Source of the DNA: Candidatus Omnitrophota bacterium
Lineage (GTDB): Bacteria > Hinthialibacterota > Hinthialibacteria > Hinthialibacterales > Hinthialibacteraceae
Length of the DNA: 64,000 bases
Direction: 5' to 3'
Assembly (NCBI GenBank): GCA_040755155.1
Contig: JBFMBP010000153.1
Coordinates: 106,010-170,009 of the forward strand
The position numbers and the translations under genes were made by a program. This document shows, one piece after another, positions 5,501 to 21,698 of this stretch. Positions within the stretch are counted from its first letter, which is position 1. The number at the start of each line of letters is the position of its first letter. The notes under the pieces are model-generated. The model had not been told where the DNA came from. It ran no database searches and saw nothing but the letters and a program-made list of their open reading frames with translations.

Positions 5501-5675
5501 GGTGCATAAATTCCTCTGCGCCGGGACTCTGGAAGAGCGCATCGATGAAATGATCGAAAGCAAAAAAGAGATCGCCGGCGGCGTCGTGGGAACCGGCGAA
5601 GCCTGGCTCACCGAACTCTCCACGAAGGAACTGAAGAAACTGTTTGCGCTGAGTCAAGACGCGGTTTCCGAATAA
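2544..5675 (+). CDS. SNF2-family DEAD/DEAH-box helicase with a long N-terminal SNF2-associated region
   Basis: Motif I DDMGLGKT and LTGTPVENN. C-terminal helicase motifs LSLKAGGTGLNLT, DRWWNP and QATDRAFRIGQ. 1043 aa. GGAG RBS 10 nt upstream of the ATG. Confidence 0.9.
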   Translation: MIILHAGWVEERLWIWGETPNELTTSSSSLRSLRNNSSIPFYSYDAGFALLSETLFAASLAPSFPQKDSRELFAWIPAKGERPFASSPLIGEPPVLRRKTALVPWRITALPLAAGSLISFLCSCVNKEMFSPGVLLGADLKYWAGGFRFAGSLAARQQFLPAIVEDKNVFRARWKPVLGGEDVKRKTLLAKAMPAACRALSLEENSVPDAAPETIAIQFIEAIVDGLARSQKPKMASFPSIKKKPEKITSFDSLHDQWLHALHSADGELDGGLDELRKLAEDIRVWRRPMDISASTPLRLCFRLEEPEEESELERKKRAKRKDWFVRYLLQDAADPSLLIPVMDAWTPKKRTAKLLERPHFSPTEYLLFSLGQASNVCVPIEASLKSAAPAGYEASAEGALEFLNESALLLEQMGFGVLLPSWWTGKGTKQRLSLKAKVKSPAMQGGGGLSLDEIIQFQWQAALGDEEISLNELLELAEMKSSLVKMRGQWVHIHPDEIQQAIEFWKKKTNEQTTLRDVIQMALGKANAPRGFDFAGVAAEGWVADFLDRLNGNASFEEQSPHPNFQGELRPYQRRGYSWLSFLREWGLGACLADDMGLGKTIQALALFQNERHNNGQAPVLLVCPTSVVGNWQKEAERFTPDLSVMIHHGLTRKKGEAFVKNASQNAIVITSYALLHRDFEILKDIRWSGVVLDEAQNIKNPETKQAKAARSLPADYRIALTGTPVENNVGDLWSIMEFLNPGFLGTQKEFKETFFIPIQALRDQEAIQRLKRFTGPFILRRLKTDKTIISDLPEKMEMKVYCNLTKEQASLYAAVVKDAEEQLESSEGIQRKGVVLATLSKLKQVCNHPAQFLGDNSAIPQRSGKLARLTEMLEEVLAVKDRAVIFSQFSEMGGILQRHLQEVFGQEIFFLHGGTPKKHRDRMVEQFQKDGGPNFFILSLKAGGTGLNLTQANHVFHFDRWWNPAVENQATDRAFRIGQTKNVQVHKFLCAGTLEERIDEMIESKKEIAGGVVGTGEAWLTELSTKELKKLFALSQDAVSE

Positions 5676-5688
5676 ATGAGGTCTAATT

Positions 5689-6573
5689 ATGGTTCGCGGA
5701 CGAAGATACTCCTATTACGATTTCGGATATTATCCCCCTTCCACTCCCCTTGAAGCGAAAGGGGGCATCAAGGCGCAATCTAAGAAAGGAGCATTCGCCC
5801 AGAAATGGTGGGCGAAGCGATGGATCGAGGTCTTGGAGAGTTTCCAAATCGGAGCTCGTTTGGGCCGGGGACGCTCCTACGCCCGCCGAGGACAGGTGCT
5901 CTCCGTCGATATCGAGAAGGGCGCCATCAAAGCCGCCGTGCAAGGCTCGCGGCCCAAGCCTTATTCCGTCTCCATTCAAGTCAAGCAATTGACTGCGGCG
6001 GAGTGGAAAAAAATCGTTGAACAGATTTCCCAACAGCCTCTTTTCGCCGCCAAACTCTTGGCGGGCGAAATGCCGGAAGATATCGAATACGTCTTCCATG
6101 ATTTGGCGCTTTCCCTCTTTCCCTCGAAATTCATCGACTTGAAAACAGAATGCAGCTGCCCGGATTGGTCGAATCCCTGCAAACATATCGCGGCGGTCTT
6201 TTATCTTCTCGGCGAGGAATTCGACCGCGATCCCTTTTTGATCTTCAAAATGCGCGGCCTAACGCGGGATGAATTGCTTTCCCGTCTTACGCCCGTCAAA
6301 CCAACGGCGAATCATTCCCCCCAATCCGAAACAATCAAAGCCTCTCCCGAACCTCTCCCGGCAGACGAACATGCGTTTTGGCAGGGCGGCGACCTGAAAG
6401 AAGAACTTTGGGGGACGGCGAGCATTCCACAAACGCCCGCGGCGCTGCCGAAGCGATTGGGAAATTTCCCCTTTTGGCGAGGAAAAGAATCGTTCCTATC
6501 CGTTATGGAAGAATATTATATCCAGGCTTCCCAGCATGGCCTGAATGCGTTCCTAGGCGAACCGCTGGAATAA
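5689..6573 (+). CDS. SWIM zinc-finger protein, partner of the SNF2 helicase
   Basis: CxCx6CxH motif (CSCPDWSNPCKH). 13-nt gap after the SNF2 gene with a GAGG RBS. The SNF2+SWIM gene pair is a known conserved bacterial arrangement (B. subtilis ywqA/ywqB-like). Confidence 0.8.
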   Translation: MVRGRRYSYYDFGYYPPSTPLEAKGGIKAQSKKGAFAQKWWAKRWIEVLESFQIGARLGRGRSYARRGQVLSVDIEKGAIKAAVQGSRPKPYSVSIQVKQLTAAEWKKIVEQISQQPLFAAKLLAGEMPEDIEYVFHDLALSLFPSKFIDLKTECSCPDWSNPCKHIAAVFYLLGEEFDRDPFLIFKMRGLTRDELLSRLTPVKPTANHSPQSETIKASPEPLPADEHAFWQGGDLKEELWGTASIPQTPAALPKRLGNFPFWRGKESFLSVMEEYYIQASQHGLNAFLGEPLE

Positions 6574-6623: not shown

Positions 6624-9287
6624 TCATTCTCCCATCCCCAGGACCGGCTCCCAGACGAGGCGAAGGCCTATTCCATAATCATTTCTAGACGTTGTACTCT
6701 GGAAATAGCGTTTCGCCGACCGGACATCGCAATAATAAGCGCCGCCGCCTCGGCATACATAATTGATACCAGAGCTTGGCCCGGTTGGATCGATTTGTTC
6801 CTTGCTGATATACTGTCCAAACCAATCCTGGCAACGTTCATAAACATTTCCGCTCATATCAAATAAGCCCCAGGCGTTCGGCAGCTTTAAGCCCACAGGG
6901 AAGAAAGTTTTTGTCGACGCGCTTACATAATAACACATACGCTTCATTTTCCCATCGCTCCCTAATTCATCTTCCCCCCAATAGTATCTTGTCGTCGTTC
7001 CTGCGCGGCAGGCGTATTCCCACTCCGCCTCCGTCGGCAAAAGGAATATCCCCAGTCCTAATCCATTTAACTTTAGCAAATAGGACTGGATAGATTGAAA
7101 TGTTATTTTATCGACGGGAATATCGTCTTTATCGCTGCGTCTTCCCATCAGAGCATACCACTGCGCATTAGTCGTTTCATATTTGCTTAAGTAAAATGGT
7201 TTCGTCAATGTGACCGTATGCTGGATTTCCGACGATCCACGACATATTTCGCCTTCTGGACTTCCCATTCGAAACGTTCCAGGCTGAATATAAACGAAAT
7301 CAAGCGGAATATTATTGTCAGGCAATCCAGGAAGTAATATCCTGTGCATTTCCATTTCAGTGTTCAAAGTCCATTCGCTTTCCATAACTCGTTTCACGCC
7401 GTCCGTGGAAAATCCGACAACACGAAAGCGATAGCATTTGCCTTTTTGAGGACCTTCCCGATAGGCAGGAGAAATAAAAAATTGGCTTTTCGGCGACCAT
7501 TCGAAATAGCGAATCTCGCCGCTTCCCGTACTTCCTAAAAAATCATGGCCAATCATCTCGTTCACAGTTACGCGGACATGATAATTCTTTATCAAAGAGG
7601 AATCTTCGCCGAAATTCCAAGCGATTAGAATCGATCTCCCATCGGAAACGCTAGATTCCGGACTCAGCCAATCCATCGGCGGGTGGATATTTCCCGTCAT
7701 CAAGTTCGTATGCGCAATAACTCGTCCGGCGGGGACATCCGGCATAGGAATCGTAGGCATAGGCGCCGGTTCTTCTCCTTCTTGAATCATCCGCACTGGC
7801 GCCGATTGCTCCAATATGATTCGCGGACCGGATGCTATCCCCAAAGGATATACGCGAAATTGGTAAGCATGATTGAATTGCGGGCCATTTTGATATAGCG
7901 GATCAACATTTGGAGCATTTAAATGCCAATCCCAGCTTCTCGCGTCTGTGACGCAACGAGTGAGGAATTGATATCCTAAACCGTCCTGGCGGACATAAAT
8001 ATCCCAACCTTGAACGTCTGAAATATCGCTGTCCCACGCAATCGTAAGATTAACCGCATCGGGAGCGTCGAAGTCGTTTTTCCCTGTAAGATCGTCCGTC
8101 GCGCCTGGCTCATCGTAAACATGAACGGCAGTCATCGACTTTAAAACTATGGGAGAGGCCGTGGGCGAATGAGTAACTGTTGGCGTAAATGTAGGCGTAA
8201 TCGTATATGTAGGCGTAATCGTCGCTGTGGGCGTGAATGTTGGATAAGGCGGCCCCCAATATCTAGCACCCCCCCCTTCAATCGGCCCCCAGCGTTTTCC
8301 TGTATAATCGACATGATATACAAAAAATCCATAAGTATGGCCAAATTCTGGGCCATTGCGAAATTTCAAATTGACCATTGGCGAATCCGGTTCCCAAATA
8401 AAATGAAAAGGCCGTTCGATCGACCATTGGCTTCCAAGATATTCAGGATTATTACGGTCTTTTTTGTCAACCATTACGAAAATTTGAAATTCTTGAAAAT
8501 AAGTGCCATCACCGCTTTTTTCCCACCAAATCGCCAATTCTTTTTCTTCTTCCGTATCATAATCGTCATAATGTAAATACTCTGTGGAGTACCTGTCATC
8601 CGTAACTGCTACTTCGCATTCATGAACGGGGGGATAGGCGATGAATCTTGTCGGCGTCGTCAAGAAGGGCGGCGTTGGAGTAAACGTTGGAAGAGGCGCC
8701 TCGACATCGCCCTTTTCATACGTTACGGGATAATAGGTATAATATCCAATGCCTGCCATTATGCCGCGTTTTGTAACAGGAAATACATGAAAGGAATAAA
8801 GGTTTCCAAACACAGGACCGTAGCGAAAAGACTGAGTCGTAAGTTGCGTACCTGTCTTCCATATAAAAATATAGGGAGGTCTGTTTGTATTCGTATGCCC
8901 TAAATACTGATATTCTTTTTTGGCTAAAGATAAATGCACATGATAATCGACGATATCCGGATTGCTTTTTTCCGATTCGCTGGGATTCCATCGCAAAACC
9001 AATTCTCTGTCGGTAGCGCCGTCATAATCCACCCACCCGCCCAAATCGTCGAAGGTATATTGATTATCTGTAACAATCATCCCATTGGCGGGCATAGCCG
9101 GATTCCAAGTCGGCCAAGGAGTAAGGGGAGTCGGCCATTCGGTTGGCGTAAAAGTTAGCGTCGGCGTAGCGGTAGGCGTCTCTCTCGCCGCTTTCGGCGG
9201 CGGCGTTGGCGTGGGAGAGTAATACTGCGCATTGGCGATAATCGATTGGATTAGAAGAAGAGATATTGCATAATTGATTGTTTTCAT
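6624..9287 (-). CDS. Large secreted protein: signal peptide, Pro/Thr-rich linkers, four FN3-like beta-sandwich modules, C-terminal FGE-sulfatase (SUMF1/DUF323) domain. Paralog 1 of 3.
   Basis: Start trimmed to internal Met (MKTINYAISLLLIQSIIANAQ signal peptide). Module ends recur as [RQ]xGPxFGxxYxFxV. C-terminal block GSPEGE..HTVTLTKPFYLSKYETTNAQW..LPTEAEWEYACRAGTTTRYYWG..NAWGLFDMSGNVYE..RGG matches the FGE-sulfatase fold. Confidence 0.8.
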   Translation of the reverse strand: MKTINYAISLLLIQSIIANAQYYSPTPTPPPKAARETPTATPTLTFTPTEWPTPLTPWPTWNPAMPANGMIVTDNQYTFDDLGGWVDYDGATDRELVLRWNPSESEKSNPDIVDYHVHLSLAKKEYQYLGHTNTNRPPYIFIWKTGTQLTTQSFRYGPVFGNLYSFHVFPVTKRGIMAGIGYYTYYPVTYEKGDVEAPLPTFTPTPPFLTTPTRFIAYPPVHECEVAVTDDRYSTEYLHYDDYDTEEEKELAIWWEKSGDGTYFQEFQIFVMVDKKDRNNPEYLGSQWSIERPFHFIWEPDSPMVNLKFRNGPEFGHTYGFFVYHVDYTGKRWGPIEGGGARYWGPPYPTFTPTATITPTYTITPTFTPTVTHSPTASPIVLKSMTAVHVYDEPGATDDLTGKNDFDAPDAVNLTIAWDSDISDVQGWDIYVRQDGLGYQFLTRCVTDARSWDWHLNAPNVDPLYQNGPQFNHAYQFRVYPLGIASGPRIILEQSAPVRMIQEGEEPAPMPTIPMPDVPAGRVIAHTNLMTGNIHPPMDWLSPESSVSDGRSILIAWNFGEDSSLIKNYHVRVTVNEMIGHDFLGSTGSGEIRYFEWSPKSQFFISPAYREGPQKGKCYRFRVVGFSTDGVKRVMESEWTLNTEMEMHRILLPGLPDNNIPLDFVYIQPGTFRMGSPEGEICRGSSEIQHTVTLTKPFYLSKYETTNAQWYALMGRRSDKDDIPVDKITFQSIQSYLLKLNGLGLGIFLLPTEAEWEYACRAGTTTRYYWGEDELGSDGKMKRMCYYVSASTKTFFPVGLKLPNAWGLFDMSGNVYERCQDWFGQYISKEQIDPTGPSSGINYVCRGGGAYYCDVRSAKRYFQSTTSRNDYGIGLRLVWEPVLGMGE

Positions 9288-9371
9288 TGCGTTTCCCCCA
9301 TCATTCCTTTTAGAACCTGTTTTCTTATTGAAACTATTCCAAATTGAATTCTTCATGTCGCCAATGGCGGT

Positions 9372-12074
9372 TCAATCCCCCATCCCCGCGTCTGGCTCCC
9401 AGACGAGGCGAAGGCCTATTCCATAGTCATTTCTAGACGTTGTTCTTTGATAATAACGCTTCGCTGACCGAACATCGCATTTATTGGAGCCCCCGCCTCG
9501 GCATACATAACTGGTTCCTATGCTAGGTCCATTTGGATCGATTTGTTCTTTTCTTATATATTGTCCATACCAATCCTGGCAACGTTCGTAAACGTTGCCA
9601 CCCATATCGAACAAACCCCAGAGATTTGGCAATTTTAAGCCAACTCGAGAAAATGCGCCATTATTTACGCTAACATAATAAGGCAAGCGTTTCATGCTCC
9701 CATTATTGTCTAATTCATCTTCTCCCCAATAATACATTGTCGTTGTTCCTGCGCGGCAGGCGTATTCCCACTCCGCTTCCGTTGGCAAACGAAACACTCC
9801 CAATCCCAAATTGTTCAGTTTCTGTAAATATCGCTGAATAGATTGCCATGTAACATTATCAACAGGAATATCGTTTATTTCTTTATTTCCAGCCATTAAA
9901 TTAATCCACTGCGCATTGGTGACTTCATATTTTCCTAAGTAAAAATCCTTCGTCAAAGTGACTCGATGCCTGATTTCATCATCAGAACGGCAAAATTCAC
10001 CCTCGGGGCTTCCTATACGAAACGATCCGGGGTAAATCATAATAAAATCTAATGGAATATTGTTTTCTGATAAATTTGGAAGTAAAACTCTATGTACTTC
10101 CAATTCGTTGTTTAATGTCCATTCGCTTTCCATAGATCGGTTCACGCCATCGGAGGAAAGTCCTACAATCTGGAATCGATAGCATTTGCTTTTTTGAGGA
10201 CCTTCCCGATAAACAGAAGAAGTATAGAAGCCGCTTTTAAAAGACCATTCGAAATATTGAATATCGCTGCTTCCCGTAATTCCCAAAAACTCAAACTTAT
10301 CCATTTCATCGACTTTTACCCAAATATGGTAATCTTTCACCAAAGGGGAATCTTCTCCAAAGTTCCAAGCGATCAAGATGGCGCGCCCATCAGGAACACG
10401 GTCTACTTTATTTAGCCAATCCATCGGCGGGGAAATATTTCCTTTCATCAAGTTCGTATGCGTAACAACTCGTCCGGCGGGAACGTTCGGGATAGGGATC
10501 GTCGGCATAGCCGCTGGTTCTGCTCCTTCTTGGCTCAGTAAAACCGGCGCTAATTGTTCCAATATGATTCGCGGACCGGAGGTAACGCCCAAAGGATATA
10601 CACGAAACTGATATGTATGATTGAATTGCGGGCCATTTAAATATAATGGACTAACATCAGGAGCATTAGGACGCCAATCGTAACTTGCCGCGTCTGCGGC
10701 GCAGCGAATCAGGAATTGATAACCCAATCCGTCTTGCCGCACATAAACATCCCAGCCAAGAGCGTTTGCATTCACATGATCCCACGCAATGGTAATGTTA
10801 ACGGCGTCGGGAGCGTCAAAATCGGTTTCTCTTGTCAGGTCGCCGGTTGACCACGGTTCGTCATATACATGGACGGCGTTCTTCGTCTCCAAAACTATAG
10901 GAGTAGCCGTTGGCGTATTAGTAGCCGTCGGCGTAAACGTTGGCGTAATCGTTGCCGTGGGCGTGATTGTTGGCGTAATCGTCGGCGTAGGCAAAGGCAA
11001 CCCTATATATTTTACTTTATAGCTGCCATACCCTCCCCAACGCTTCCCTGTATAATCGATATGAAATACCCCAAATGAATACTCATGGCCGAATTCAGGA
11101 CCGTTACGAAGTTTCAAAGAAACCAAGGGCGAATTCGGTTCCCATACAAAAAAGAAAGGACGTTCAATCCGCCATAGACTACCAAGATATTCGGAATATT
11201 TGGAGTCGATCAATACAAAAATATGAAAAACCTGAAAGTAATCGCTGCCGCCGCTTTTTTCCCACCAAATGGCGAGTTCTCTTGCGTCTTTCTCATCGTA
11301 ATCCTCCTTCCCGCCCAAGTTTTCTGAAGAATACCGATCGTCTGTGACGTACACTTCGCTTTCAGGAACTCGAGGATTGCCATAAAGCTTTTCCGGCGTC
11401 GCAAATGAGGACGGCGTAGGAGCGTATGTAGGAAGAGGCGCGTCAGCATCCCCCTCCTCATACGTTACCGGATAATAAGTATAATATCCAACTCCTATCA
11501 TTCCCTCATTTTTTGTGACGGGGAAAACATGGAAAAAATATAATCCTCCAAGCTCAGGACCATTGCGAAAGGCATCAGCCACTAATGGCGAATTCGCTTT
11601 CCATTCAAAAAGGTATGGAGGTCTATTTGAATTTGCGCGGCCTAAGTGTTGAATTTGGCGACTTCCTATTGATACGTTTAGTACATGCACATAATAATCT
11701 ACAATATCTGGATTGTTTCTCTCCTCTTCGCTAGGATTCCACCGCAAAACCAATTCCCGGTCGTTCTCTCTGTCATAATCCAGCCACCCGCTCAAATCGT
11801 CGAATGTATATTGATTATCCGTTACGATCATTCTGTTGGTTGGCAGGGAAAGATTCCAAGTCGGCCAGGGAGTAAGCGGAGTCGGCCATTCCGTCGGCGT
11901 AGAACCTAGCGTAGGCGTGACTGACGGCGTTTCCGTCATAAAATAGGCGGGCAAGGCGATAGGCGTTTCTCTCGCCGCTCCCGACGGCGGCGTTGGCGTG
12001 GGAGAGTAATCCTGCGAAACAGCTAGAAAGGGTTGAATCAAACATAACGCGGCAAAACAGTAAAATCTTTTCAT
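9372..12074 (-). CDS. Large secreted FN3-like x4 + C-terminal FGE-sulfatase-domain protein. Paralog 2 of 3.
   Basis: Signal peptide MKRFYCFAALCLIQPFLAVSQ. Same architecture as the 6624-9287 gene, with a near-identical C-terminal half. 15-nt gap to the downstream paralog. Confidence 0.8.
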   Translation of the reverse strand: MKRFYCFAALCLIQPFLAVSQDYSPTPTPPSGAARETPIALPAYFMTETPSVTPTLGSTPTEWPTPLTPWPTWNLSLPTNRMIVTDNQYTFDDLSGWLDYDRENDRELVLRWNPSEEERNNPDIVDYYVHVLNVSIGSRQIQHLGRANSNRPPYLFEWKANSPLVADAFRNGPELGGLYFFHVFPVTKNEGMIGVGYYTYYPVTYEEGDADAPLPTYAPTPSSFATPEKLYGNPRVPESEVYVTDDRYSSENLGGKEDYDEKDARELAIWWEKSGGSDYFQVFHIFVLIDSKYSEYLGSLWRIERPFFFVWEPNSPLVSLKLRNGPEFGHEYSFGVFHIDYTGKRWGGYGSYKVKYIGLPLPTPTITPTITPTATITPTFTPTATNTPTATPIVLETKNAVHVYDEPWSTGDLTRETDFDAPDAVNITIAWDHVNANALGWDVYVRQDGLGYQFLIRCAADAASYDWRPNAPDVSPLYLNGPQFNHTYQFRVYPLGVTSGPRIILEQLAPVLLSQEGAEPAAMPTIPIPNVPAGRVVTHTNLMKGNISPPMDWLNKVDRVPDGRAILIAWNFGEDSPLVKDYHIWVKVDEMDKFEFLGITGSSDIQYFEWSFKSGFYTSSVYREGPQKSKCYRFQIVGLSSDGVNRSMESEWTLNNELEVHRVLLPNLSENNIPLDFIMIYPGSFRIGSPEGEFCRSDDEIRHRVTLTKDFYLGKYEVTNAQWINLMAGNKEINDIPVDNVTWQSIQRYLQKLNNLGLGVFRLPTEAEWEYACRAGTTTMYYWGEDELDNNGSMKRLPYYVSVNNGAFSRVGLKLPNLWGLFDMGGNVYERCQDWYGQYIRKEQIDPNGPSIGTSYVCRGGGSNKCDVRSAKRYYQRTTSRNDYGIGLRLVWEPDAGMGD

Positions 12075-12161
12075 CACATGTTTCCCTCGTTTCGAAAGTC
12101 GCCACAATTCCTTTTCAAATCTACCATTAATATATAAACTCTTGTTTTGAAGGTTATTTAT

Positions 12162-15100
12162 TTACTCTTGTGTTCCCGCGTCCGGTTCCCAGACGAGGCG
12201 AAGGCCGTTCGATGCGTATCCATAATCTAAAATTCCATAGGAATAATTCCGCGAATAATAACGATAGGCGGATCGGCAATCATAAATCGTTTTTCCGCCT
12301 CCTCGGCATACATGCAATATGCCTGTCGCAGCTCCAGCAGGATCGATGCAGATATCAACTTCATACGGACCATACCAATCTTGGCACCATTCGTAGACAT
12401 TCCCGCTCATGTCAAACAATCCCCAAGCGTTTGGGTGTCTTAAACCGACAGGATAATTGCAGCAATAGGGAATGCTTACGTAATAATTCATTCGTTTCGA
12501 TTGCTCGTTTGGCATCCATTCGTCATCGCCCCAATACAATCGCGTTGATGTTCCCGCTCGACATGCGTATTCCCATTCCGCTTCCGTCGGCAATCGAAAT
12601 TTACCTAATCCTAGCTGGCTCAACATTTCCGCATACGCTTGCGCCGCATACCACGATACGCTGTCGATGGGATAATTTCCCGAATAAGGATTGTACTGTG
12701 TTATCGAGCGCCATTGTTCTTGCGTCACTTCATATTTTCCAATATAAAAATCTTTTGTGATTGTTACTTCATGCTGCGTTTCATCCTCTCGCCGAAACTG
12801 ATCGATCATCGGACTTCCCATAAGAAACGTCCCGGCTTTTATGAGAATAAAATCAAGCGGCTTCGAATGCTCCGGCATATTCGGCAGCGGAATTCTTTGA
12901 ACGATCATTTCCGAATTCAAAATCCAATCGCTCTCTAAAACTCTTTTCACCCCGTCGGAAGATATTCCTACAATCCGAAAACGATAGCATTTGCCTTTTT
13001 GAGGACCTTCCCGATAAGCTGGAGAAGTATAAAATTCACTTTTTGGCGACCATTCAAAATATGAAATTTCGCCGCTTCCCGTACTTCCCAAAAATTCGTT
13101 GCCGTCCATCTCGCCGACTTTTATTCGAATATGATAGTCTTTAATCAAAGCAGAGTCTTCGCCGAAATTCCAAGCGATAAGAATGGCGCGCCCATCAGGA
13201 ACGCTGTCTTCTTTATTAAGCCAATCCATCGGCGGGGGAATATTTCCTTTCATCAAGTTCGTATGCGTAACAACCCGTCCGGCGGGAACGTCAGGAATAG
13301 GGATCGTCGGCATAGGCGCCGGTTCCTCTCCTTCTTGGAGCAATAGTACTGGCGCCGATTGCTCCAATATCATTTGCGGACCGGACGCAACGCCCAAAGG
13401 ATATACGCGAAATTGATAAGTATGATTGAATTGCGGGCCTTTTCGATATGCGGGATTAACATTTGGAGCATTAGAGCGCCAATCCCAACTTGTTTCGTCG
13501 GCGGAACAATGAGCCAAGAATTGATACCCCAATCCATCTTGGCGAACATAGACATCCCATCCTTGAACGCCAGTTATAACCGTCTCCCAAGAAATAGTGA
13601 GATTAATATCGTCAGGAAAATCAAAATCGCATTTACCCGATAAATCCTCACTAGCGCCAGGTTCGTCAAAAACATAAATCTCATATATTTTTCCCGTTTT
13701 TGTAGGCGTCGGCGTAGGAGGCAGTAGCGTAGGAGTTGGCATTGGCGTTGTTTTCTTCTCAATGTTATGAGGAGTTGAGTTGGGATAACCTGTATATAGA
13801 ACATCAGTGGTCGAAATCGATCCCCATTTCATGCCGATTTTATCAACATAATACATTACAAACGAATAAAGATGTCCAAATTCAGGACCATGGCGAAATT
13901 TCAAATCCACCCAAGGCGCATTGGGTTTCCATACAAAATGATAGGGCTTTTCGATTTGCCAAGTACTTCCTAGGTACTCTCTGTTCCGTAAATCTTTTGT
14001 ATTAACAAAAATCTGAAATTCTCGTAAATAATCTTTTTCTTCCGCCATATTCCACCACAATACCAATTCTCTTTCATCGGCGTAATCATAATCAGTCTTA
14101 TTACATAGATTTTCCTTCGAAAACTCGTCATCTGTAATAATCATTTCATAAAATGGAATTGCGAAATTTGGTATTGGAGTTGTTGGTTTTGTTGACGGGA
14201 GTGGAGTTTTAGTCGATGTTGGACGCGGGTAATCGTTTGTTCCCGACATAAATCGAATCGTATTGTAGTTATAATATCCGTATCCAGCAATGATATTGCT
14301 TTTTGTGACTGGAAAAACATGAAAATTATACATATTACCAAATGCAGGACCATTGCGATAAATTTTTGATACTAATTCAGATCCTGCTTTCCATGCAAAT
14401 ATATATGGCGGTTTGCTTGAGTTTGTATGGCCTAGATGTTCAAAACCGGATTTGTTTATTGATAGTTGTACATAATAATCTACAATATCCAGATTGGTTT
14501 TTTCTGATTCGTTGGGATTCCATCGTAAAACCAATTCTCGGTCATTTTCTGTATCGTAATCTAACCAACCGTCTAAATTTTCGTATGTATATTGATTATC
14601 CGTTACGATCATTCTATCGGAAGGCATAGATGAATTCCACGTTGGTGATGGAATAGGAAAATTTGGCGTCTCTAACGGCGTAGGCAATGACGTCGCGTCA
14701 AGCCATTTCAAATAATAAATAGGATGATTTCCTGAATATGTGTTTAATATTTTATTTGAGATCCTTGTTGCAATCACTCTTACATTAAAATAATATTTAA
14801 CGCCAAATTGCGGACCGTCTCTATATTTTTCATCGATTAAAGACGATCCAGGCGCCCAAATAATTTCAAACGGTTTTTCTCCACTGCCTGTATGACCTAG
14901 ATATTCTTCTTTTTGATTTTCGCTTGTTGATACATACGCCCGAAAATCCTTGCAGCCGTAATCTTCCGAATCCATTTCAAGATCCCATCGAATGACCAAC
15001 TCGCGTTCATCTTCTGAGTCGTAATCCACACGAATAAATTGCGTTAAATCCTCAAAAGAATAACGATCGTCCGTCACGATAATATTATTTACAGGAACGG

Positions 15101-15659
15101 TAGGAATAGGTGTAATCGGCGAGGGCGTTGGAGTAAGAGTTAACGCATTTACATATTGTACTTTATGGTTCATATCAAAAAACATAAAGTCACTTCCATC
15201 TTTGTCAATTAAAGCAGCTCGAAATTTATATTCATGGCCAAATTGCGGGCCATTCCGAAATTTCGGTTCAACGATTGGATTATCAGGAATCCATGAAAAT
15301 AAAAAAGGACAGTCGATTAGCTGAACGCTGCACAATAATTCAAATTTAGTACTACTCTGGTAATCGCGTACATAGATATGAAAATTTATTTTACAGGGTT
15401 CGGTCCCCACCCCTGGGAACTTCCACCATAACGCCAATTCCCTCTCGTTTTCAAGATCGTAATCCCCCAATCCACATAAATTTTCGGCGGAATATTTATC
15501 GTCAGTGACAATAACGCAATTATAATTAAAAACAGGTTTGGCGATAGGCGTCTCCGTATTCGCATCTGGCGTTCTTGTTGGAGTCGGAGTGAAGTCCTGC
15601 GCGTTGGCGATAATCGATTGGACAAATAATAACCCTGTCAAAAGATGGATTTTTTTCAT
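12162..15659 (-). CDS. Large secreted FN3-like x6 + C-terminal FGE-sulfatase-domain protein. Paralog 3 of 3.
   Basis: Signal peptide MKKIHLLTGLLFVQSIIANAQ. Six modules ending in the xGPxFGxxYxFxV signature. C-terminal FGE-sulfatase block (RLPTEAEWEYACRAGTSTRLYWG..NAWGLFDMSGNVYEWCQDW). The N-terminal half is markedly AT-rich. Confidence 0.8.
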   Translation of the reverse strand: MKKIHLLTGLLFVQSIIANAQDFTPTPTRTPDANTETPIAKPVFNYNCVIVTDDKYSAENLCGLGDYDLENERELALWWKFPGVGTEPCKINFHIYVRDYQSSTKFELLCSVQLIDCPFLFSWIPDNPIVEPKFRNGPQFGHEYKFRAALIDKDGSDFMFFDMNHKVQYVNALTLTPTPSPITPIPTVPVNNIIVTDDRYSFEDLTQFIRVDYDSEDERELVIRWDLEMDSEDYGCKDFRAYVSTSENQKEEYLGHTGSGEKPFEIIWAPGSSLIDEKYRDGPQFGVKYYFNVRVIATRISNKILNTYSGNHPIYYLKWLDATSLPTPLETPNFPIPSPTWNSSMPSDRMIVTDNQYTYENLDGWLDYDTENDRELVLRWNPNESEKTNLDIVDYYVQLSINKSGFEHLGHTNSSKPPYIFAWKAGSELVSKIYRNGPAFGNMYNFHVFPVTKSNIIAGYGYYNYNTIRFMSGTNDYPRPTSTKTPLPSTKPTTPIPNFAIPFYEMIITDDEFSKENLCNKTDYDYADERELVLWWNMAEEKDYLREFQIFVNTKDLRNREYLGSTWQIEKPYHFVWKPNAPWVDLKFRHGPEFGHLYSFVMYYVDKIGMKWGSISTTDVLYTGYPNSTPHNIEKKTTPMPTPTLLPPTPTPTKTGKIYEIYVFDEPGASEDLSGKCDFDFPDDINLTISWETVITGVQGWDVYVRQDGLGYQFLAHCSADETSWDWRSNAPNVNPAYRKGPQFNHTYQFRVYPLGVASGPQMILEQSAPVLLLQEGEEPAPMPTIPIPDVPAGRVVTHTNLMKGNIPPPMDWLNKEDSVPDGRAILIAWNFGEDSALIKDYHIRIKVGEMDGNEFLGSTGSGEISYFEWSPKSEFYTSPAYREGPQKGKCYRFRIVGISSDGVKRVLESDWILNSEMIVQRIPLPNMPEHSKPLDFILIKAGTFLMGSPMIDQFRREDETQHEVTITKDFYIGKYEVTQEQWRSITQYNPYSGNYPIDSVSWYAAQAYAEMLSQLGLGKFRLPTEAEWEYACRAGTSTRLYWGDDEWMPNEQSKRMNYYVSIPYCCNYPVGLRHPNAWGLFDMSGNVYEWCQDWYGPYEVDICIDPAGAATGILHVCRGGGKTIYDCRSAYRYYSRNYSYGILDYGYASNGLRLVWEPDAGTQE

Positions 15660-15939
15660 CGCAAGTTTCCCTCGCATCGGTCCTTAAGCCGATTCTCTTT
15701 TGGAGAAAACCTTCGTTCATACGTTCCCGGCGAGATGGAGCGCCCCCCGCCCGCCGCCTTGGGTAGAATGTCTTTTGGGGAATGGATGACGAATGGATCG
15801 CGGGACTTTTCGCCTATTCCCCCTTTGCTTTATATTATCACAAAAATAGATAACGTACATAATAACAATCTAAAATATAACATAAAAATACTAAAATCAG
15901 CCGAAACCAGCCGGGCGGGAATTTCCTTCACTCTCATAT

Positions 15940-15968
15940 TGAACATTTGTTTAGTACGCGCTATAATT
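15940..15968 (+). promoter_or_regulatory. Candidate sigma-70 promoter (TTGAAC-17-TATAAT) overlapped by a LexA-box-like GAAC-N4-GTTT dyad upstream of umuD
   Basis: TTGAAC at 15940-15945 and TATAAT at 15963-15968 with a 17-nt spacer. GAACATTTGTTT at 15941-15952 resembles the CGAAC-N4-GTTCG SOS box used by many non-gammaproteobacterial LexA proteins, with one mismatch. Sits 38 nt upstream of the umuD ATG. Confidence 0.4.
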
Positions 15969-16005
15969 CTTACTGCAGGAAGGATGCGCGCGAGGTGGAG
16001 TCATC

Positions 16006-16437
16006 ATGAAAAACGAATTTTGGACGCTGGATAACGATTCTTTATTCGAGCCGAGGGCGGCGCCGTTGGCGGGGCCGAGCGCGGCGGCGGGATTTCCCTC
16101 GCCCGCCGACGATTACGTGGAAAAGCAACTGGACTTGAACGAATACCTGATTCACAACCCGGCGGCGACCTTTTTCGTGCGGGTGTCGGGAGATTCCATG
16201 ACCGGCGCGGGCATCCACCACGGCGACATCCTGGTGGTGGACCGCTCGCTGGAGGCGGCGGCGGGGATGGTGGTGGTGGCGGCGGTGGAGGGAGAGATGG
16301 TGGTGAAGCGGCTGCGGCGTCTGGAAGGCAAACTGGCGCTGACGCCGGACAACGACGCCTATCCCCCCATCGAGATCGGCGAGGAGACGGAATGCGCCGT
16401 GTGGGGAGTAGTTACCCATGCCATCCATGCGGTCTGA
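16006..16437 (+). CDS. umuD: UmuD-like S24 peptidase (LexA C-terminal-domain family), error-prone polymerase accessory subunit
   Basis: Ser/Lys dyad context [23 protein letters not shown] and VVKRL. AAG cleavage-site region. 143 aa. Overlaps the downstream Y-family polymerase gene. Confidence 0.85.
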
Positions 16438-17779
16438 AGCGAAGCGGCCTCCGGCCATCGCGCTGGCGGACTGCAATAACTTTTACGCCTCCTGCGAGCG
16501 GGTGTTCCGGCCCCATCTGGAGGGAAAGCCGGTAGCGGTGCTTTCCAACAACGACGGCTGCGTGGTAGCGCGTTCCAACGAGGCGAAGGCGTTGGGAATC
16601 GCGATGGGCGAGCCGTTCTTCAAAGCGCGGGCGCTCTTGGAACGGGCGGGAGGACAATTCTTTTCCTCCAACTATGCGCTGTACGGCGATATGTCGCAGC
16701 GGGTGATGAGCGCGCTGGCTCAGTTCACGCCGGATTTGGAAATCTACTCCATCGACGAGGCCTTTCTCAACTTGACGGGAATCCCCGCCGGGGACGCGGC
16801 GGACTATGCGCGGCGCATCCGGCGGGTGGTGAAGCAATGGACGGGCATCCCCGTCTCCATCGGCGTCGCCGAGACGAAGACGCTGGCCAAGATCGCCAAC
16901 CGCATCGCCAAAAAACAGCGCCCGGACGGCGTATTCGACCTGCGAGCGGCGCCCTCCCGCGAGGAGACGCTGGCGTCGGTCGCCGTGGAAGACGTGTGGG
17001 GCATCGGACATCGCTACGCTTTCCGGCTGCGCCAGCGCGGCGTGGAAACGGCGTTGGCGCTGCGCGACGCCGACGAGCGCTGGATTCAAAAGGAAATGGC
17101 GATGGGCATTGTCGGCGTGCGGCTGGTGTACGAACTGCGGGGGATTCCCTGCCTGCCGTTGGATCTCTGCCCCTCGCCGAAGAAAGAGATCGTCTGCTCG
17201 CGCTCGTTCGGGAGGCCGGTGGAGTCGCTGGCGGAACTGAAGGAAGCCACGGCGGAGTACGTCAGCCGCGCGGCGGAAAAGCTGCGGCGGCAAGGATCGC
17301 TGGCGGGCGGCGTGGGGGTGTACCTGATGACCAATCCCTTTAAAAACGAACCGCAGTACTACAACTCGGCCTATATCCCCTTCCCCGCGCCGAGCAACAT
17401 CACGCCGGAGATGATTGCGTACGCGCTGGCGGCGCTGGAGAGGATGTACCGCCCCGGCTACCGTTACAAAAAAACGGCGGTTTTGCTCAGCGGGCTGGTT
17501 CCGGACAACGTGATTCAGACCAGTTTCTTCGACGAGGACGACGAAAGCCGCATGAGGGGAATGCGGCTGATGCGGACCGTGGATAAAATCAACGCCCGGC
17601 TGGGAGGAGGAGCGGTGAAATTCGGAGCGGCGGGCATCGCCCAAGAATGGCAAATGCGGCGGCGGCATCGCTCGCCCGCCTACACGACGCGCTGGGACGA
17701 ACTGGCCGTGGTGAAATCGGGCGACGGATGCTTCCGGCGGGCGGCGCGGAAACGGAAAAACAAACGGGAAAAACGATGA
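16418..17779 (+). CDS. umuC: Y-family DNA polymerase (UmuC / Pol V catalytic subunit)
   Basis: N-terminal [53 protein letters not shown] is a classic UmuC/DinB palm motif. 453 aa. Coupled to umuD by a 20-nt overlap. The start may be the second ATG at 16427. Confidence 0.85.
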
Positions 17780-17924
17780 ATAAAGCGAAAAATTCGGCGA
17801 ATCAATATCGTCGGGATTCGCTTCGTTCGACCAATCCTAATTCTAAAATCCTACGAAGCAAAAGAAAAACAATCCTCTCCCCCCACTTCCTGAATCGCGA
17901 TATAATGCTTCCAGGAGATGAACC

Positions 17925-18149
17925 ATGCTGAAAACATTCCATGCCAGTCTTTACCGCGATCGGAACGGCTATTCTGCTCAATGCTTGGAAGTGGACATCG
18001 TCAGCCAAGGCGCAACGAAAGAAGCCGCGCTCGCCAACCTTAAAGAAGCAGTCGAACTCTACTTCGAACCGCCTCAAGCTCATCCCATGCCGGAAATCCA
18101 CGCCTTCGAGGTTGACCTTGCCGCCGCTGAAACCGCTTCCGTTTCGTGA
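17925..18149 (+). CDS. hicB: HicB-family antitoxin (UPF0150 N-terminal domain only)
   Basis: MLKTFHASLYRDRNGYSAQCLEVDIVSQGATKEAALANLKEAVELYFE matches the HicB/UPF0150 fold. 74 aa. Directly precedes and overlaps a HicA-like ORF. Confidence 0.65.
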   Translation: MLKTFHASLYRDRNGYSAQCLEVDIVSQGATKEAALANLKEAVELYFEPPQAHPMPEIHAFEVDLAAAETASVS

Positions 18150-18342
18150 CGTTAAACGTAAACTCCCGTCCCTCGGCTTCCACCAAGCGTCTCAACGCGG
18201 CAGCCATGTCAAATTCATCAAAGAAACGCCTGACGGCGTTCGTGTTGTGATTGTTCCCATGCACAGAGAAATCGAGGTTGGAACTCTTAAAAACATCCTT
18301 CGTCTGGCGGGAATATCGACTGAAGAATTTATTGATCTCTAA
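18118..18342 (+). CDS. hicA: HicA-family mRNA-interferase toxin; TTG start inferred
   Basis: C-terminal 66 aa ..PFRDVKRKLPSLGFHQASQRGSHVKFIKETPDGVRVVIVPMHREIEVGTLKNILRLAGISTEEFIDL fits HicA (YcfA) including the conserved GSH. No ATG or GTG in frame near the domain start. TTG at 18118 sits 6 nt after GAGG. The long ORF from 17941 would overlap hicB completely and is rejected. Confidence 0.55.
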   Translation: MPPLKPLPFRDVKRKLPSLGFHQASQRGSHVKFIKETPDGVRVVIVPMHREIEVGTLKNILRLAGISTEEFIDL

Positions 18343-18409: not shown

Positions 18410-18988
18410 TTACTTCGCGAAGTTGAGAACTCCATCCACTTTGGAAACATCGCATATGTGCAAACTGCGTTTGCGGTTTTTTTCTCCCGCCGGACCTTCC
18501 CCTAAAGAGCAGGTGGGAATGACGATCTTGCCGTCCTGTCCCAGAATCAGACTGTATTTATAGTCGCCCACATCGATGCAATCCGGTTCCGCGCCCAGTT
18601 TGAAATAGGGGGGATTGGATTTATCGAGGCGAATCACGGCGCCGCCTTGAGACTTCTCCATGATCTCGTTCAATTCGAATAACTCGCAGATTTTCTCGCC
18701 CGGCTTGGTATGATTTTTATTCGCCAGGTAGGTCAGGCAATTGGCGGCGAGCGTCAAGCGCGCCGAACACTCAACGCCGCGCCACATAAATAAAGCGTCA
18801 AAATAATTGGGGATGGCGATCAAGGCGATGAGCAGCGCCGAAATCGCGAGGCAAACGATTTCCCATAGCTGCAATCCGAGAATCGTGCGCTTCTCTTCTC
18901 TCTCCCCACTCCGTTCGGGTATCGCCCGGACAGGGGCGTCGCTCGTCCGATCCTTTTGCGCTTCCACTGAGGCGTTCATTTCGTTCAT
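18410..18988 (-). CDS. Divergent type IV pilin/pseudopilin-like protein with a long leader, translationally coupled to the upstream TPR gene
   Basis: Segment G-LQLWE-IVCLAISALLIALIAIPNY parallels the prepilin consensus G-FTLIE...IAIPNF (Glu at +5, IAIPNY). Start ATG at 18988 overlaps the TPR stop (ATGA). GGAG RBS. The ORF-track N-terminal extension is rejected. Confidence 0.5.
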   Translation of the reverse strand: MNEMNASVEAQKDRTSDAPVRAIPERSGEREEKRTILGLQLWEIVCLAISALLIALIAIPNYFDALFMWRGVECSARLTLAANCLTYLANKNHTKPGEKICELFELNEIMEKSQGGAVIRLDKSNPPYFKLGAEPDCIDVGDYKYSLILGQDGKIVIPTCSLGEGPAGEKNRKRSLHICDVSKVDGVLNFAK

Positions 18989-21486
18989 GGTTTCTCCGCT
19001 GTATTTATTCTTTGCATTTCCAATCGGGCAAGATCGGAAAAAATCGTGTCGGGTAAATCCAACAAAAGTTGCCGGTATTTTGTCGCATCTTCCATGCGCA
19101 AGCCAGAGGGACTGGACATTTGCAATAATTCCAATTGCGTCATTCCCCGAATTGCCGGATTGTCTACGTCGAGAAGAAGGCGCCGCCATTCTTCGCTGGC
19201 TCCGGCGCGATCACCGGCGTCCCGCTTCAATCGGCCGATGTCGTACCTCGCCCATTCTTCGATATCTTCTCCGTATCCCTTGACGGCCAATTCTCTCATG
19301 ACGGGAACGGCGTCGGCGAAACGGCCTTGGAGCCGATACATGGCCGAGAGGCTATAGAGATCGAGTGATTCGCCCGTCAACGGCTCGATAGCCGCCAGGA
19401 TTTTCAGCGCATCGTTCGCCCAGCGCCAATCGTCGCTATTGTCCACAATATCCTGGAGCAGCAAGCGGGCGGCTTCCACATCTTTCAAAGCCAAATGGAT
19501 TTGCGCCAGGAGAAAACGAGCTTCGGAGCGCTGCGGTTGAAATTGGATATTTTCCAATAATTGCATCGCCGGTTCCAGGGACGAGAATTCCACCAACGCC
19601 TTGGCGCGCAAAAACAATAACCGATCCAGCGCCTCCGGGGACAAGGGCGGATTCACTGTGGAGGAAGATTGTTCCACTTTGCGAATCGCCGATAAAGCTT
19701 CGCCGGGCTGGAAAGCGTTCAATTGAACCGCCGCATAACGCAATAGCCGGTCCGCAATCAAAGAATCGAGAGGGAGGACGGATGTCGCTTCCAGAACCGG
19801 CGCTAAGGACGGCTTCATGAGTTGCGCCGCTTCGCGTTGATGGTCCAGGCCGGATTCGCCGCTGAGAATTTCCGCCAATTCCCGGTCGGCGGCGTTTCGA
19901 TAGAGGCTTTCTGAAGCCACCGCCTGCAGAAGAACAACCGCTCCATCGCGATCCCCCTGTTTCAGGGCGGATTGGGCTAACTGAATGCGGCATAAACCGG
20001 TATCGTCCGCCTGAGCGATGTCCTCCATATCCTTGCGGAATGGCGGTCGCGCGCCGAGTTCCAGCAATGGCCGCCGCACCCATTCTTTCACTTCCGCATA
20101 GGGACGCCCTGTGGCCAATTGCACTAAGGCGGCGACTAGCGGCTTGAGATCGGCGCAAGTTTCGGCGAATTGCAGAATAGCATAGGAGAGAGACTCCGGA
20201 TTGAATCCATTCGCTTGCGACGCTTTGTCGAAGACGGCGAAGGCGCGATCGTACATCCCCAACCGCAGAGCGGTTTCTCCCTCTTGGGAGACCAAAGGAG
20301 GAGGCGTCGAGTCTTTCCGTTCGTTCAATATTCCAGCCGCTGTTTGTTGATCCCCCAAAGCGAAGATTTTTTCCGCCGCTTTGAAAGCCGCCAAGGGATT
20401 GGCTGGCTGGAGATTCATCCAATCTTTCCAAAGTTGGACGGCTTCCTCTCTTTTCCCCGCATTGAATAACAGATGGCTCAGCTTTTCGCGGCGAGTGAAA
20501 TCGAGCGGCAGGAATTTTACGATTCGAGCCAGAATGGCGATCGCCTCTTCGGAGCTGCGTTGAAGATGGACGAGATCCACCCATTGATCCAAAAGTTCTA
20601 TCGGCGCATGGCCAATGTACTCGGCGGCAACCGTTGGGGGATCTTTCGCTTCTCCATTCATCAGGGTGGATTCGATCGCTTCCAAGGCTTCCTTCCCGCG
20701 ATTGGCCTTGAGCAAGAGGTCGGTCAGCAATAAGAGAAACGGATAAGGATCGCCGCCCGTTTTGGATAATCCGCTCAAACGCCGCAATAAATCGTCCAAT
20801 TTGTTCTGGGCGGAATAAACCTCCACCATCGGCGCAGCCTGCGCCCGGGCTTGTGCCGGAAAAACCGGCCAAAGGGTTTCATACAAGCCGCAGCTGCGAG
20901 AAAGGTCGCCTTGCAAGCGCAACAAATCGGCCAAATTCCACCCCAAAGCGTCGCGGTATTTGGGAATGGCGATGGCATAGAGATTATCGATCTCTTCCCG
21001 GCTCAAGGTCAGAAAAGCGTCGTTTTCGATAATCCGCATCAGGAGATGAACCTGGTAGGCTTCATCCGCCTTGGGAAACAGTTTCCAGCATTCCTTAACG
21101 GCGCGCCGATAAAAGCCCGCCCGCTCCAGGCAGCCAATATAGCGTTGCGAATAGTAATTCACCTTCAGGAACGCCGGATTCTGGGGATCGGGAGGAACGC
21201 CTTCCAACGTTTTGGCGTAATACTCCGCCGCCTGTTCGAAACGGCCTTGCGACTCCTCGATGATTCCCAGCTGGCTTAAAACGCCCGTTTTATCGGCGTA
21301 GCTTTTCCACTCTTGGGAATCGAGCATCCGCCGATAAAAATAAGAAGCGGTTACATAATCGGAGGAGACGAGGGCGGCATCGCCTTGAGATCGAAGATCG
21401 TCCAATTCGCCCCCCCATGCGAAAGAGCGGCTCCAAACGAGGACAAGCAGCAAGAATAGTCGCCCAAAGGCGTATTTTCGATTCAT
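18985..21486 (-). CDS. Secreted TPR-repeat protein
   Basis: Signal peptide MNRKYAFGRLFLLLVLVWSRSFAWG. Numerous TPR-like 34-residue helical repeats (A..Y...A....A..L patterns) across about 830 aa. Confidence 0.7.
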   Translation of the reverse strand: MNRKYAFGRLFLLLVLVWSRSFAWGGELDDLRSQGDAALVSSDYVTASYFYRRMLDSQEWKSYADKTGVLSQLGIIEESQGRFEQAAEYYAKTLEGVPPDPQNPAFLKVNYYSQRYIGCLERAGFYRRAVKECWKLFPKADEAYQVHLLMRIIENDAFLTLSREEIDNLYAIAIPKYRDALGWNLADLLRLQGDLSRSCGLYETLWPVFPAQARAQAAPMVEVYSAQNKLDDLLRRLSGLSKTGGDPYPFLLLLTDLLLKANRGKEALEAIESTLMNGEAKDPPTVAAEYIGHAPIELLDQWVDLVHLQRSSEEAIAILARIVKFLPLDFTRREKLSHLLFNAGKREEAVQLWKDWMNLQPANPLAAFKAAEKIFALGDQQTAAGILNERKDSTPPPLVSQEGETALRLGMYDRAFAVFDKASQANGFNPESLSYAILQFAETCADLKPLVAALVQLATGRPYAEVKEWVRRPLLELGARPPFRKDMEDIAQADDTGLCRIQLAQSALKQGDRDGAVVLLQAVASESLYRNAADRELAEILSGESGLDHQREAAQLMKPSLAPVLEATSVLPLDSLIADRLLRYAAVQLNAFQPGEALSAIRKVEQSSSTVNPPLSPEALDRLLFLRAKALVEFSSLEPAMQLLENIQFQPQRSEARFLLAQIHLALKDVEAARLLLQDIVDNSDDWRWANDALKILAAIEPLTGESLDLYSLSAMYRLQGRFADAVPVMRELAVKGYGEDIEEWARYDIGRLKRDAGDRAGASEEWRRLLLDVDNPAIRGMTQLELLQMSSPSGLRMEDATKYRQLLLDLPDTIFSDLARLEMQRINTAEKP

Positions 21487-21698
21487 AAAAACATCTATTT
21501 CCAATCCGGCGACAGGTTTCGGCTATCAGCTAGGAAGGCGGATTGATATTCGCGATCAATCATAAAATAAAAACGAATCAAGCTGCCCAAAGTCATGGGC
21601 GCCGATTCGAAAAATTTTTCCGTTAAAACAGATATAAATAGCGGCTTTAGGGACAGTTTACAAGCCGGATAACGAATAACGGCGAAAACGAATAAGGA

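Follow-up and report, generated by a model that had tools for sequence, protein, structure and literature searches.

The umuDC genes, which encode the subunits of the error-prone DNA polymerase V (Pol V), are known in two settings, namely, as a chromosomal two-gene operon in which umuD comes first and overlaps umuC (Escherichia coli), and as part of mobile elements, represented by mucAB of pKM101, impAB, samAB, rumAB of the R391/SXT integrative and conjugative elements (ICEs), and prophage-borne homologues. Here we analyze a umuDC operon residing in 64,000 nucleotides of contig JBFMBP010000153.1 (positions 106,010 to 170,009, assembly GCA_040755155.1; this whole stretch is referred to below as the window), in a host labeled "Candidatus Omnitrophota bacterium" by NCBI. 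The operon stands out as a GC-rich island, and a previous sequence-only reading, noting that umuDC cassettes are frequent ICE cargo, suggested a horizontally acquired mutagenesis module. We lean, with modest confidence, toward an intact Pol V operon of the host's own lineage (Hinthialibacterota/OLB16-like) that is no recent foreign cargo, and toward high GC content as a lineage-wide property of this operon.

The two genes overlap by 20 nt, and their identity, already proposed in that reading, is borne out by the Pfam and NCBIfam models. UmuD matches PF00717 (Peptidase_S24; 8e-32) over residues 25–136 of 143 and PRK10276 with 167.1 bits (cut-off 110), while with the LexA model TIGR00498 it reaches 76 bits, under the cut-off of 111 and over the C-terminal part of the model only; UmuD is, by these matches, an S24 LexA-like peptidase domain without the N-terminal DNA-binding domain of LexA. 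Alignment with E. coli UmuD (8gmt_B, 3.5e-32) places the predicted cleavage site at Ala28–Gly29 (AAAG/FPSPADDY opposite VQCG/FPSPAADY of 8gmt_B) and the predicted catalytic pair at the conserved serine of SGDSM and the lysine in VVKRL. UmuC matches PF00817 (4.7e-42), PF11799 (9.9e-22), and PF13438 (5.4e-24), and passes PRK03609 narrowly (436.8 bits vs. the cut-off of 431), all Pol IV models being far below their cut-offs. Its catalytic carboxylates, the Asp of the DxxxF motif and the Asp–Glu of SIDEAF (D18, D113, E114), are invariant in a 20-sequence alignment of the clade and line up with the Pol IV motifs of 7yll_A. The UmuC proteins of the clade have 434–471 aa, compared with approximately 422 aa for most other UmuC, and hence C-terminal extensions are typical of the clade, though variable in sequence; the window copy has a 20-residue basic tail past DUF4113 (17717–17779). 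The two genes are an intact UmuD/UmuC (Pol V) pair.

The GC content of the segment 16006–17779, spanning both genes, is 63.6%, compared with 50.8% for the whole 64 kb and 50.4% when the segment is left out, and the two genes hardly differ from each other (63.4% in umuD, 63.6% in umuC). This segment tops all 1,774-bp windows in the 64 kb (mean 50.7%, standard deviation 4.0%; approximately +3.2 standard deviations). The GC-rich island of about 1.8 kb, initially noticed by eye, is therefore real and far from the window average, while the accompanying estimate of 65–70% GC was slightly high, the peak in 400-bp windows being 66.5%. Both steps in GC content lie close to the gene borders, the rise no more than approximately 50 nt from the umuD ATG (16006) and the fall equally near the umuC stop codon (17779). 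The left flank has a GC content of 34–48% over 15 kb occupied by low-GC FGE-sulfatase genes, and the right one, 47–55%; since the FGE-sulfatase genes are themselves AT-rich, the visual contrast at the left edge is exaggerated.

The GC excess of umuDC is mainly synonymous. The GC content at third codon positions (GC3) is 0.80 in umuD and 0.81 in umuC, compared with 0.588 ± 0.073 (maximum 0.704) in 41 other genes of the window, and the GC content at fourfold degenerate sites (GC4) is 0.89–0.90, compared with 0.71 ± 0.05 in genes of the plus strand and 0.66 ± 0.11 in those of the minus strand. Overall, umuDC is approximately 13 GC points and 0.22 GC3 units above its genome. The GC-normalized di- and tetranucleotide signatures of umuDC are host-like: the dinucleotide δ* of the segment equals 78.5, compared with 67.6 ± 24 in other windows (85 out of 295 windows are higher), and the correlation of tetranucleotide z-scores between the segment and the rest of the window (TETRA) is 0.612, compared with 0.595 ± 0.071 for other windows. 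The tetranucleotide analysis, previously suggested as a check for foreignness, thus does not set the operon apart.

The excess recurs in the orthologues of the window operon. We compared eight loci of the UmuC clade, namely, the window and seven relatives (L001, L003, L005, L170, L171, L172, L173), using public gene calls; the offsets were also computed with an independent caller of open reading frames (ORFs). The seven relatives come from GCA_964419335.1, GCA_013177805.1, GCA_003598175.1, GCA_964412555.1, GCA_964517495.1, ERZ21862645, and ERZ21878115. Among the genes within ±10 kb, umuC has the highest GC3 in the window and in six out of seven relatives, and ties for the first place in the remaining one, L005. 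The umuC-minus-flank GC3 offset ranges from +0.107 to +0.249 over the eight loci (mean 0.19 ± 0.054), and umuC GC3 follows the flank GC3 with a slope of 0.85 and an intercept of 0.267 (r = 0.87, p = 0.005); the value predicted for the window umuC from the other seven loci is 0.754, and the observed one, 0.811. As a compositional baseline, we used matches listed in genome- and metagenome-wide scans, all of them at ≤59% identity. Genomes and metagenomes together gave 96 unrelated loci, for which the offset is only +0.066 ± 0.076. As gap and pgk of the window show a similar GC3 excess (+0.06 to +0.09), the value of +0.066 is probably just what usually separates conserved genes from the average of their neighbors, and only the +0.19 of the clade is special.

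Eight positive offsets scaling with the host GC content are not explained by a single recent import. Neither is the fact that the copies differ in 32–43% of their amino acids, a divergence at which equilibration of synonymous sites would be expected to be long complete. Given the same offset in the orthologues from eight genomes, the signature seems to be tied to the gene and not to one event. Outside the clade, the umuC-minus-flank GC3 offset is +0.17 to +0.21 in four Planctomycetota/Pirellulales loci (L011, L026, L038, L068), and another locus of this group, L016, has an overall-GC offset of +0.089. The GC excess may extend beyond the host lineage, to the neighboring Planctomycetota UmuC clade.

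The ancestry of the operon follows that of the host. The OLB16/Hinthialibacterota phylum was once filed under Omnitrophota (PMC9324843), and the relatives of the host Pgk at 76–84% identity are named Omnitrophota, Omnitrophica, or Candidatus Hinthialibacter, with the next ones dropping to 68%. The closest UmuC, P0002 from GCA_964419335.1, is 67–68% identical to that of the window, no closer one being present among 5.8 billion proteins, and its contig also bears a Pgk 81% identical to the Pgk of the host. Between the window and this genome, the identities are 76% for Gap, 81% for Pgk, 61% for SecG, 74% for UmuD, and 67% for UmuC, and thus the divergence of umuDC is within the range of housekeeping genes. 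In the neighbor-joining tree, the window UmuC and P0002 are sisters, and both belong to one clade (P0002–P0022) that includes Omnitrophota-labeled proteins, the next clades being those of Planctomycetota and Nitrospirota. The best UmuC relatives, at 57–68% identity, thus belong to the host lineage, contrary to the expectation of a donor lineage different from the host; of the two findings that had been named as refuting the import, this one was made, whereas a GC content near the window average was not. Import on a mobile element is improbable, since umuDC is the most GC-rich gene set of its neighborhood in nearly every sampled relative; we infer long residence of umuDC in the lineage.

Specifically, it is very unlikely that umuDC is ICE, plasmid, or prophage cargo from a GC-rich donor of a different lineage. 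The GC and GC3 anomaly and the adjoining toxin–antitoxin pair would fit such an origin, and UmuC homologues are frequent on conjugative plasmids (at least 5,000 PLSDB records, 4,007 of them conjugative) and are found in phages as well. However, mobile-element hallmarks are absent from the window. In 46 ORFs from all over the 64 kb, among them every large non-overlapping one, Pfam revealed no integrase, transposase, relaxase, or conjugation/transfer genes; the 64 kb contain no tRNA or tmRNA genes, and direct repeats of at least 10 nt do not flank umuDC in any of the eight loci. Ends of integron cassettes or other cassettes were considered and rejected, as neither a conserved downstream element nor repeats were found. 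The surroundings are chromosomal, with gap-pgk-secG located 16 kb from umuDC. The GC-rich part is confined to two coding sequences with host-like oligonucleotide signatures, and the best plasmid, phage, and viral (IMG/VR) relatives of UmuC (55, 46, and 51% identical, respectively) are more distant than those from the host lineage, within whose clade the window copy is nested. Along with the recurrence of the GC excess in all eight clade members, these data largely refute the mobile-cargo interpretation within the window.

Even less credible is an assembly or binning artifact, in which the contig would have received a GC-rich umuDC belonging to a different population. The genome is indeed metagenome-assembled, a single contig accounts for all records of the protein, and the compositional edges are abrupt; but these edges are at the start and stop codons, while the clade-typical operator and promoter sit in the AT-rich upstream spacer. 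Moreover, the operon lies inside a contig of 177 kb and is flanked on either side by host-lineage genes, and the same pattern is repeated in seven independent assemblies from different projects.

Several observations weigh against a long-resident operon with a lineage-wide GC excess. One is the codon usage of the window copy. The G-over-C skew at fourfold sites is +0.47 in umuD and +0.29 in umuC, whereas the 22 other plus-strand genes are C-preferring or neutral (−0.15 ± 0.12, maximum +0.02); for the 18 minus-strand genes, it is −0.04 ± 0.15 (maximum +0.24). This preference for G-ending codons is unique to the window copy, as the skew in umuC of the relatives is inside the range of flanking genes (the skew was measured at fourfold sites; G3/(G3 + C3) over all codons is uninformative between loci). 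The skew suggests that here umuDC is out of equilibrium with the local substitution patterns, as after a recent arrival or relocation. Another observation concerns the gene order. The Usp–TPR–small protein order is conserved in distant loci L086–L088, where a sigma-54 response regulator comes next, while in the window it is followed by hicBA–umuDC and three FGE-sulfatase genes, forming an exact synteny breakpoint beside the toxin–antitoxin pair; the nearest genomes sharing the TPR839 neighborhood are 37–51% identical, and synteny breaks at the position of umuDC. The degenerate state of the window operator, described below, is also among the points favoring a recent arrival. In addition, the flank comparison spans ±10 kb per locus and not whole genomes, and a marker gene confirmed the lineage of one out of seven relatives, the others being assigned by NCBI labels and membership in the UmuC clade. 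Finally, two candidate causes of the excess failed, as TT/AA depletion is absent and it depends on the genome whether the bias agrees with that of highly expressed genes or opposes it, and no mechanism is known that would keep a single operon above its genome by 19 GC3 points.

The skew and the breakpoint leave some room for a fairly recent transfer, or recombinational replacement, from an unsampled GC-richer donor of the same or an allied lineage into the variable region by hicBA, with the codon usage not yet drifted. We regard this scenario as possible but doubtful; it is kept under consideration because only the window copy has the strong G-ending preference. A same-lineage donor would fit the host-like tetranucleotide signature and phylogeny along with the outlying GC3 and GC4 values, and given the thin sampling of the lineage (the best match of the neighboring TPR protein is 51% identical, and that of Pgk, 84%), a missing donor would not be surprising. 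The context of umuDC also differs in every relative, often with toxin–antitoxin or defense genes nearby, and in this lineage umuDC tends toward variable, defense-island-like regions. For example, umuDC is flanked by Cas3 and Cas_GSU0053 in L001, by BrnT/BrnA, DUF2971, and SocA_Panacea in L170, and by a TIR-domain protein and TacA-GNAT in L172. On the other hand, all eight loci would need GC-richer donors, yet umuC GC3 tracks that of the recipient; the GC3 of the window copy is already predicted by the other seven loci; none of the 5.8 billion proteins provides a UmuC closer than 68%; and neither att repeats, nor an integrase, nor conserved cassette ends are seen. Hence our preference for an operon of the host's own lineage.

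What could maintain the excess in such an operon was considered separately. Avoidance of TT, the site of UV dimers, in a gene that serves after DNA damage was rejected: in each of the eight genes, TT + AA are 1.16–1.6 times as frequent as expected from base composition and also exceed the frequency expected from synonymous shuffling. Translational throttling via non-optimal codons, or the opposite, has no consistent support, as the direction of the expression-linked GC3 differs between genomes: ribosomal and glycolytic genes of the sister genome have below-average GC3, gap and pgk of the window are above average, and umuC is high in both. An overlapping antisense gene was rejected as a source of the bias as well. 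The antisense frame is open because umuC lacks TTA, CTA, and TCA codons, of which there are none in the window and in L003 and 2–17 in the five lower-GC relatives examined. Being open in the two copies with GC3 > 0.8 and interrupted in these five, the frame tracks GC3 rather than conservation, and a Pfam search with its product yields no match; it had been rightly dismissed as spurious.

Two candidate causes are retained. One is GC-biased gene conversion, with umuDC as an accessory operon that recombines often; the other is selection acting at the synonymous sites of a transcript induced by DNA damage. Tentatively, and with considerable doubt, one may suppose a persistent gene-confined force that holds the synonymous sites of umuDC approximately 0.1–0.25 GC3 above the genome in Hinthialibacterota-like bacteria and acts more weakly in the neighboring Planctomycetota UmuC clade. 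Selection at the level of the mRNA or template of the damage-induced polymerase could provide this force, and so could unusually strong GC-biased conversion. To our knowledge, a gene-specific compositional rule mimicking a foreign island has not been described before.

The region upstream of umuD contains a sigma-70-like promoter, which matches the consensus at 10 out of 12 positions, and an overlapping putative LexA operator, TATTGAACATTTGTTTAGTA (Table 1). The latter is a degenerate copy, with two mismatches, of the clade palindrome TACTGAACATTTGTTCAGTA, in which the GAAC-N4-GTTC core lies within CTG-N10-CAG; in the window, the core is found at 15940–15953 with one mismatch. The operator is conserved upstream of umuD in the clade: this 20-bp palindrome, or its close variants, is the sole non-coding element shared by the upstream regions of umuD (L001, L003, L005, L170, L172, L173). 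The GAAC-N4-GTTC motif belongs to a known class of LexA boxes, found in Bacillus and Staphylococcus (PMC9578287). The 64-kb window itself contains no lexA gene. Taken at the level of sequence, these features make LexA control of umuDC likely. By analogy with E. coli Pol V, LexA would occupy the palindromic operator overlapping the promoter until DNA damage lifts the repression; RecA-stimulated self-cleavage of UmuD at Ala28–Gly29 would yield UmuD′, and the UmuD′2C complex would then perform error-prone synthesis across DNA lesions.

The umuD–umuC layout is the same as in the window in six out of seven relatives. In the remaining one, L171 (ERZ21878115 contig_27), umuC has no umuD upstream (no tblastn match and no gene called), which may be a solo umuC or a result of umuD loss; a partial operator-like sequence, GCTCATTTGTTCA, and TATAAT remain before umuC in the region 9602–10000 of this locus.

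Table 1. Coordinates of umuDC, its regulatory elements, and adjacent features in the window.
Feature	Position	Strand	Description
Three tandem paralogous FGE-sulfatase genes	6624..15677	−	Pfam FGE-sulfatase in all three; GC 41–46%, GC3 0.37–0.44
Putative LexA (SOS) operator	15937..15956	+	TATTGAACATTTGTTTAGTA; overlaps the −35 element and spacer
Sigma-70-like umuDC promoter	15939..15967	+	−35 TTGAAC, 17-nt spacer, −10 TATAAT
umuD	16006..16437	+	143 aa, predicted S24 autoproteolytic Pol V subunit; Pfam Peptidase_S24, PRK10276
Antisense ORF	16412..17668	−	418 aa, codon-aligned reverse frame of umuC; spurious
umuC	16418..17779	+	453 aa, predicted Y-family Pol V subunit; Pfam IMS + IMS_C + DUF4113, PRK03609
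HicB-like antitoxin candidate	17925..18149	+	74 aa; overlaps hicA
hicA toxin	18112..18342	+	About 76 aa; TTG start at 18112 inferred from sequence
TPR839-hyp259 gene pair	18410..21504	−	Right-hand synteny boundary of the variable region with hicBA and umuDC

The hicBA pair reported to follow umuDC is only partly recognized by the models. HicA matches PF07927 (HicA_toxin) with 56.5 bits (3e-15; cut-off 27) and the PDB entries 1whz (6.4e-9) and 9svk (HicA family, 1.6e-4). The preceding ORF falls 0.6 bits short of the Pfam threshold for DUF7387 (27.3 vs. 27.9 bits), matches nothing in NCBIfam or PDB, and has no recognizable DNA-binding domain; adjacency to hicA and overlap with it make this ORF a candidate HicB partner. 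Both genes have host-like composition (GC 54% and GC3 0.56 in the HicB-like ORF, GC 49% in hicA) and hence are outside the GC-rich segment.

Further to the right, the listed ORFs 18410–19189 (259 aa) and 18985–21504 (TPR), both on the minus strand, overlap by 205 bp, and thus the true start of the 259-aa protein probably lies downstream of the listed one; for the TPR gene, the NCBI product has 833 aa, compared with 839 aa in the ORF. The FGE-sulfatase genes to the left encode giant proteins of 910, 911, and 1171 aa, in which an FGE-sulfatase (SUMF1-like) domain at the C-terminus is combined with long N-terminal repeats formed by recurring "VTDD.Y..E.L....DYD.E.ERELV..W" modules; compositionally, these genes are outliers in the direction opposite to umuDC. 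Elsewhere in the window, a DUF3670–SNF2 helicase (1043 aa) directly precedes a SWIM zinc-finger protein (294 aa), an apparent two-gene pairing (2544–6573, plus strand). The only Rfam match is Acido-Lenti-1 (RF01687; 50214–50258, minus strand; 47.7 bits, gathering score 37), an intergenic motif upstream of an ECF sigma/FecR/N-methyl-domain gene set.

A gene-bounded GC island is usually read as a trace of horizontal transfer, and the present locus calls for caution with this approach, as here the phylogeny, normalized signatures, and orthologous loci oppose such a reading. If the GC3 offset holds genome-wide, umuDC would provide a natural case for the study of what keeps the synonymous sites of one operon off equilibrium, the candidate forces being biased gene conversion and selection linked to expression under DNA damage. 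In addition, the locus provides a record of what seems to be a complete Pol V system, together with a candidate LexA operator, from a candidate phylum that has hardly been studied.

Compared with GC-atypical genomic islands, umuDC shows the same sharp, gene-bounded shift in GC content and codon usage. It differs from them in that it is only 1.8 kb long and lacks an integrase, tRNA, and direct repeats, and in being GC-rich, whereas AT-rich islands are more usual; moreover, its GC-normalized signatures are host-like, its phylogeny is congruent with the host lineage, and the offset recurs in eight genomes. The window operon shares the protein family and operon layout with the mobile umuDC homologues, which often have toxin–antitoxin genes nearby too, but no mobile backbone is present here, and the identity to plasmid, phage, and viral copies does not exceed 55%. 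The neighboring hicBA resembles type II hicAB modules in that translation of a HicA_toxin protein of approximately 76 aa is coupled to that of a small partner encoded upstream; this antitoxin candidate differs from its counterparts in these modules by its size (74 aa), the lack of a recognizable DNA-binding domain, and a score just under the Pfam threshold. In E. coli hicAB, the gene order is the reverse of that in the window, where the antitoxin candidate precedes hicA.

The closest counterpart is the E. coli chromosomal umuDC, likewise a two-gene operon with umuD first and overlapping umuC. By sequence comparison, UmuD has in common with its E. coli namesake a predicted S24 autoprotease with the (Ala/Cys)–Gly cleavage site and the Ser/Lys pair, and UmuC, the IMS, IMS_C, and DUF4113 domains, the catalytic Asp/Asp–Glu, and a Qxx(L/F)F clamp-binding-like motif. 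In both cases a palindromic operator, a putative one in the window, lies over the promoter, and the clade consensus, TACTG-N10-CAGTA, even reproduces the outer arms of the SOS box known from E. coli, while the GAAC-N4-GTTC core is as in the Bacillus-type boxes and the window copy is degenerate. The remaining differences from E. coli are the very distant host phylum, the short basic C-terminal extension of UmuC, and the GC and GC3 excess over the genome. In all other respects umuDC of the window is an ordinary, intact Pol V operon, and the lineage-wide, gene-confined GC3 excess is its one unusual point.

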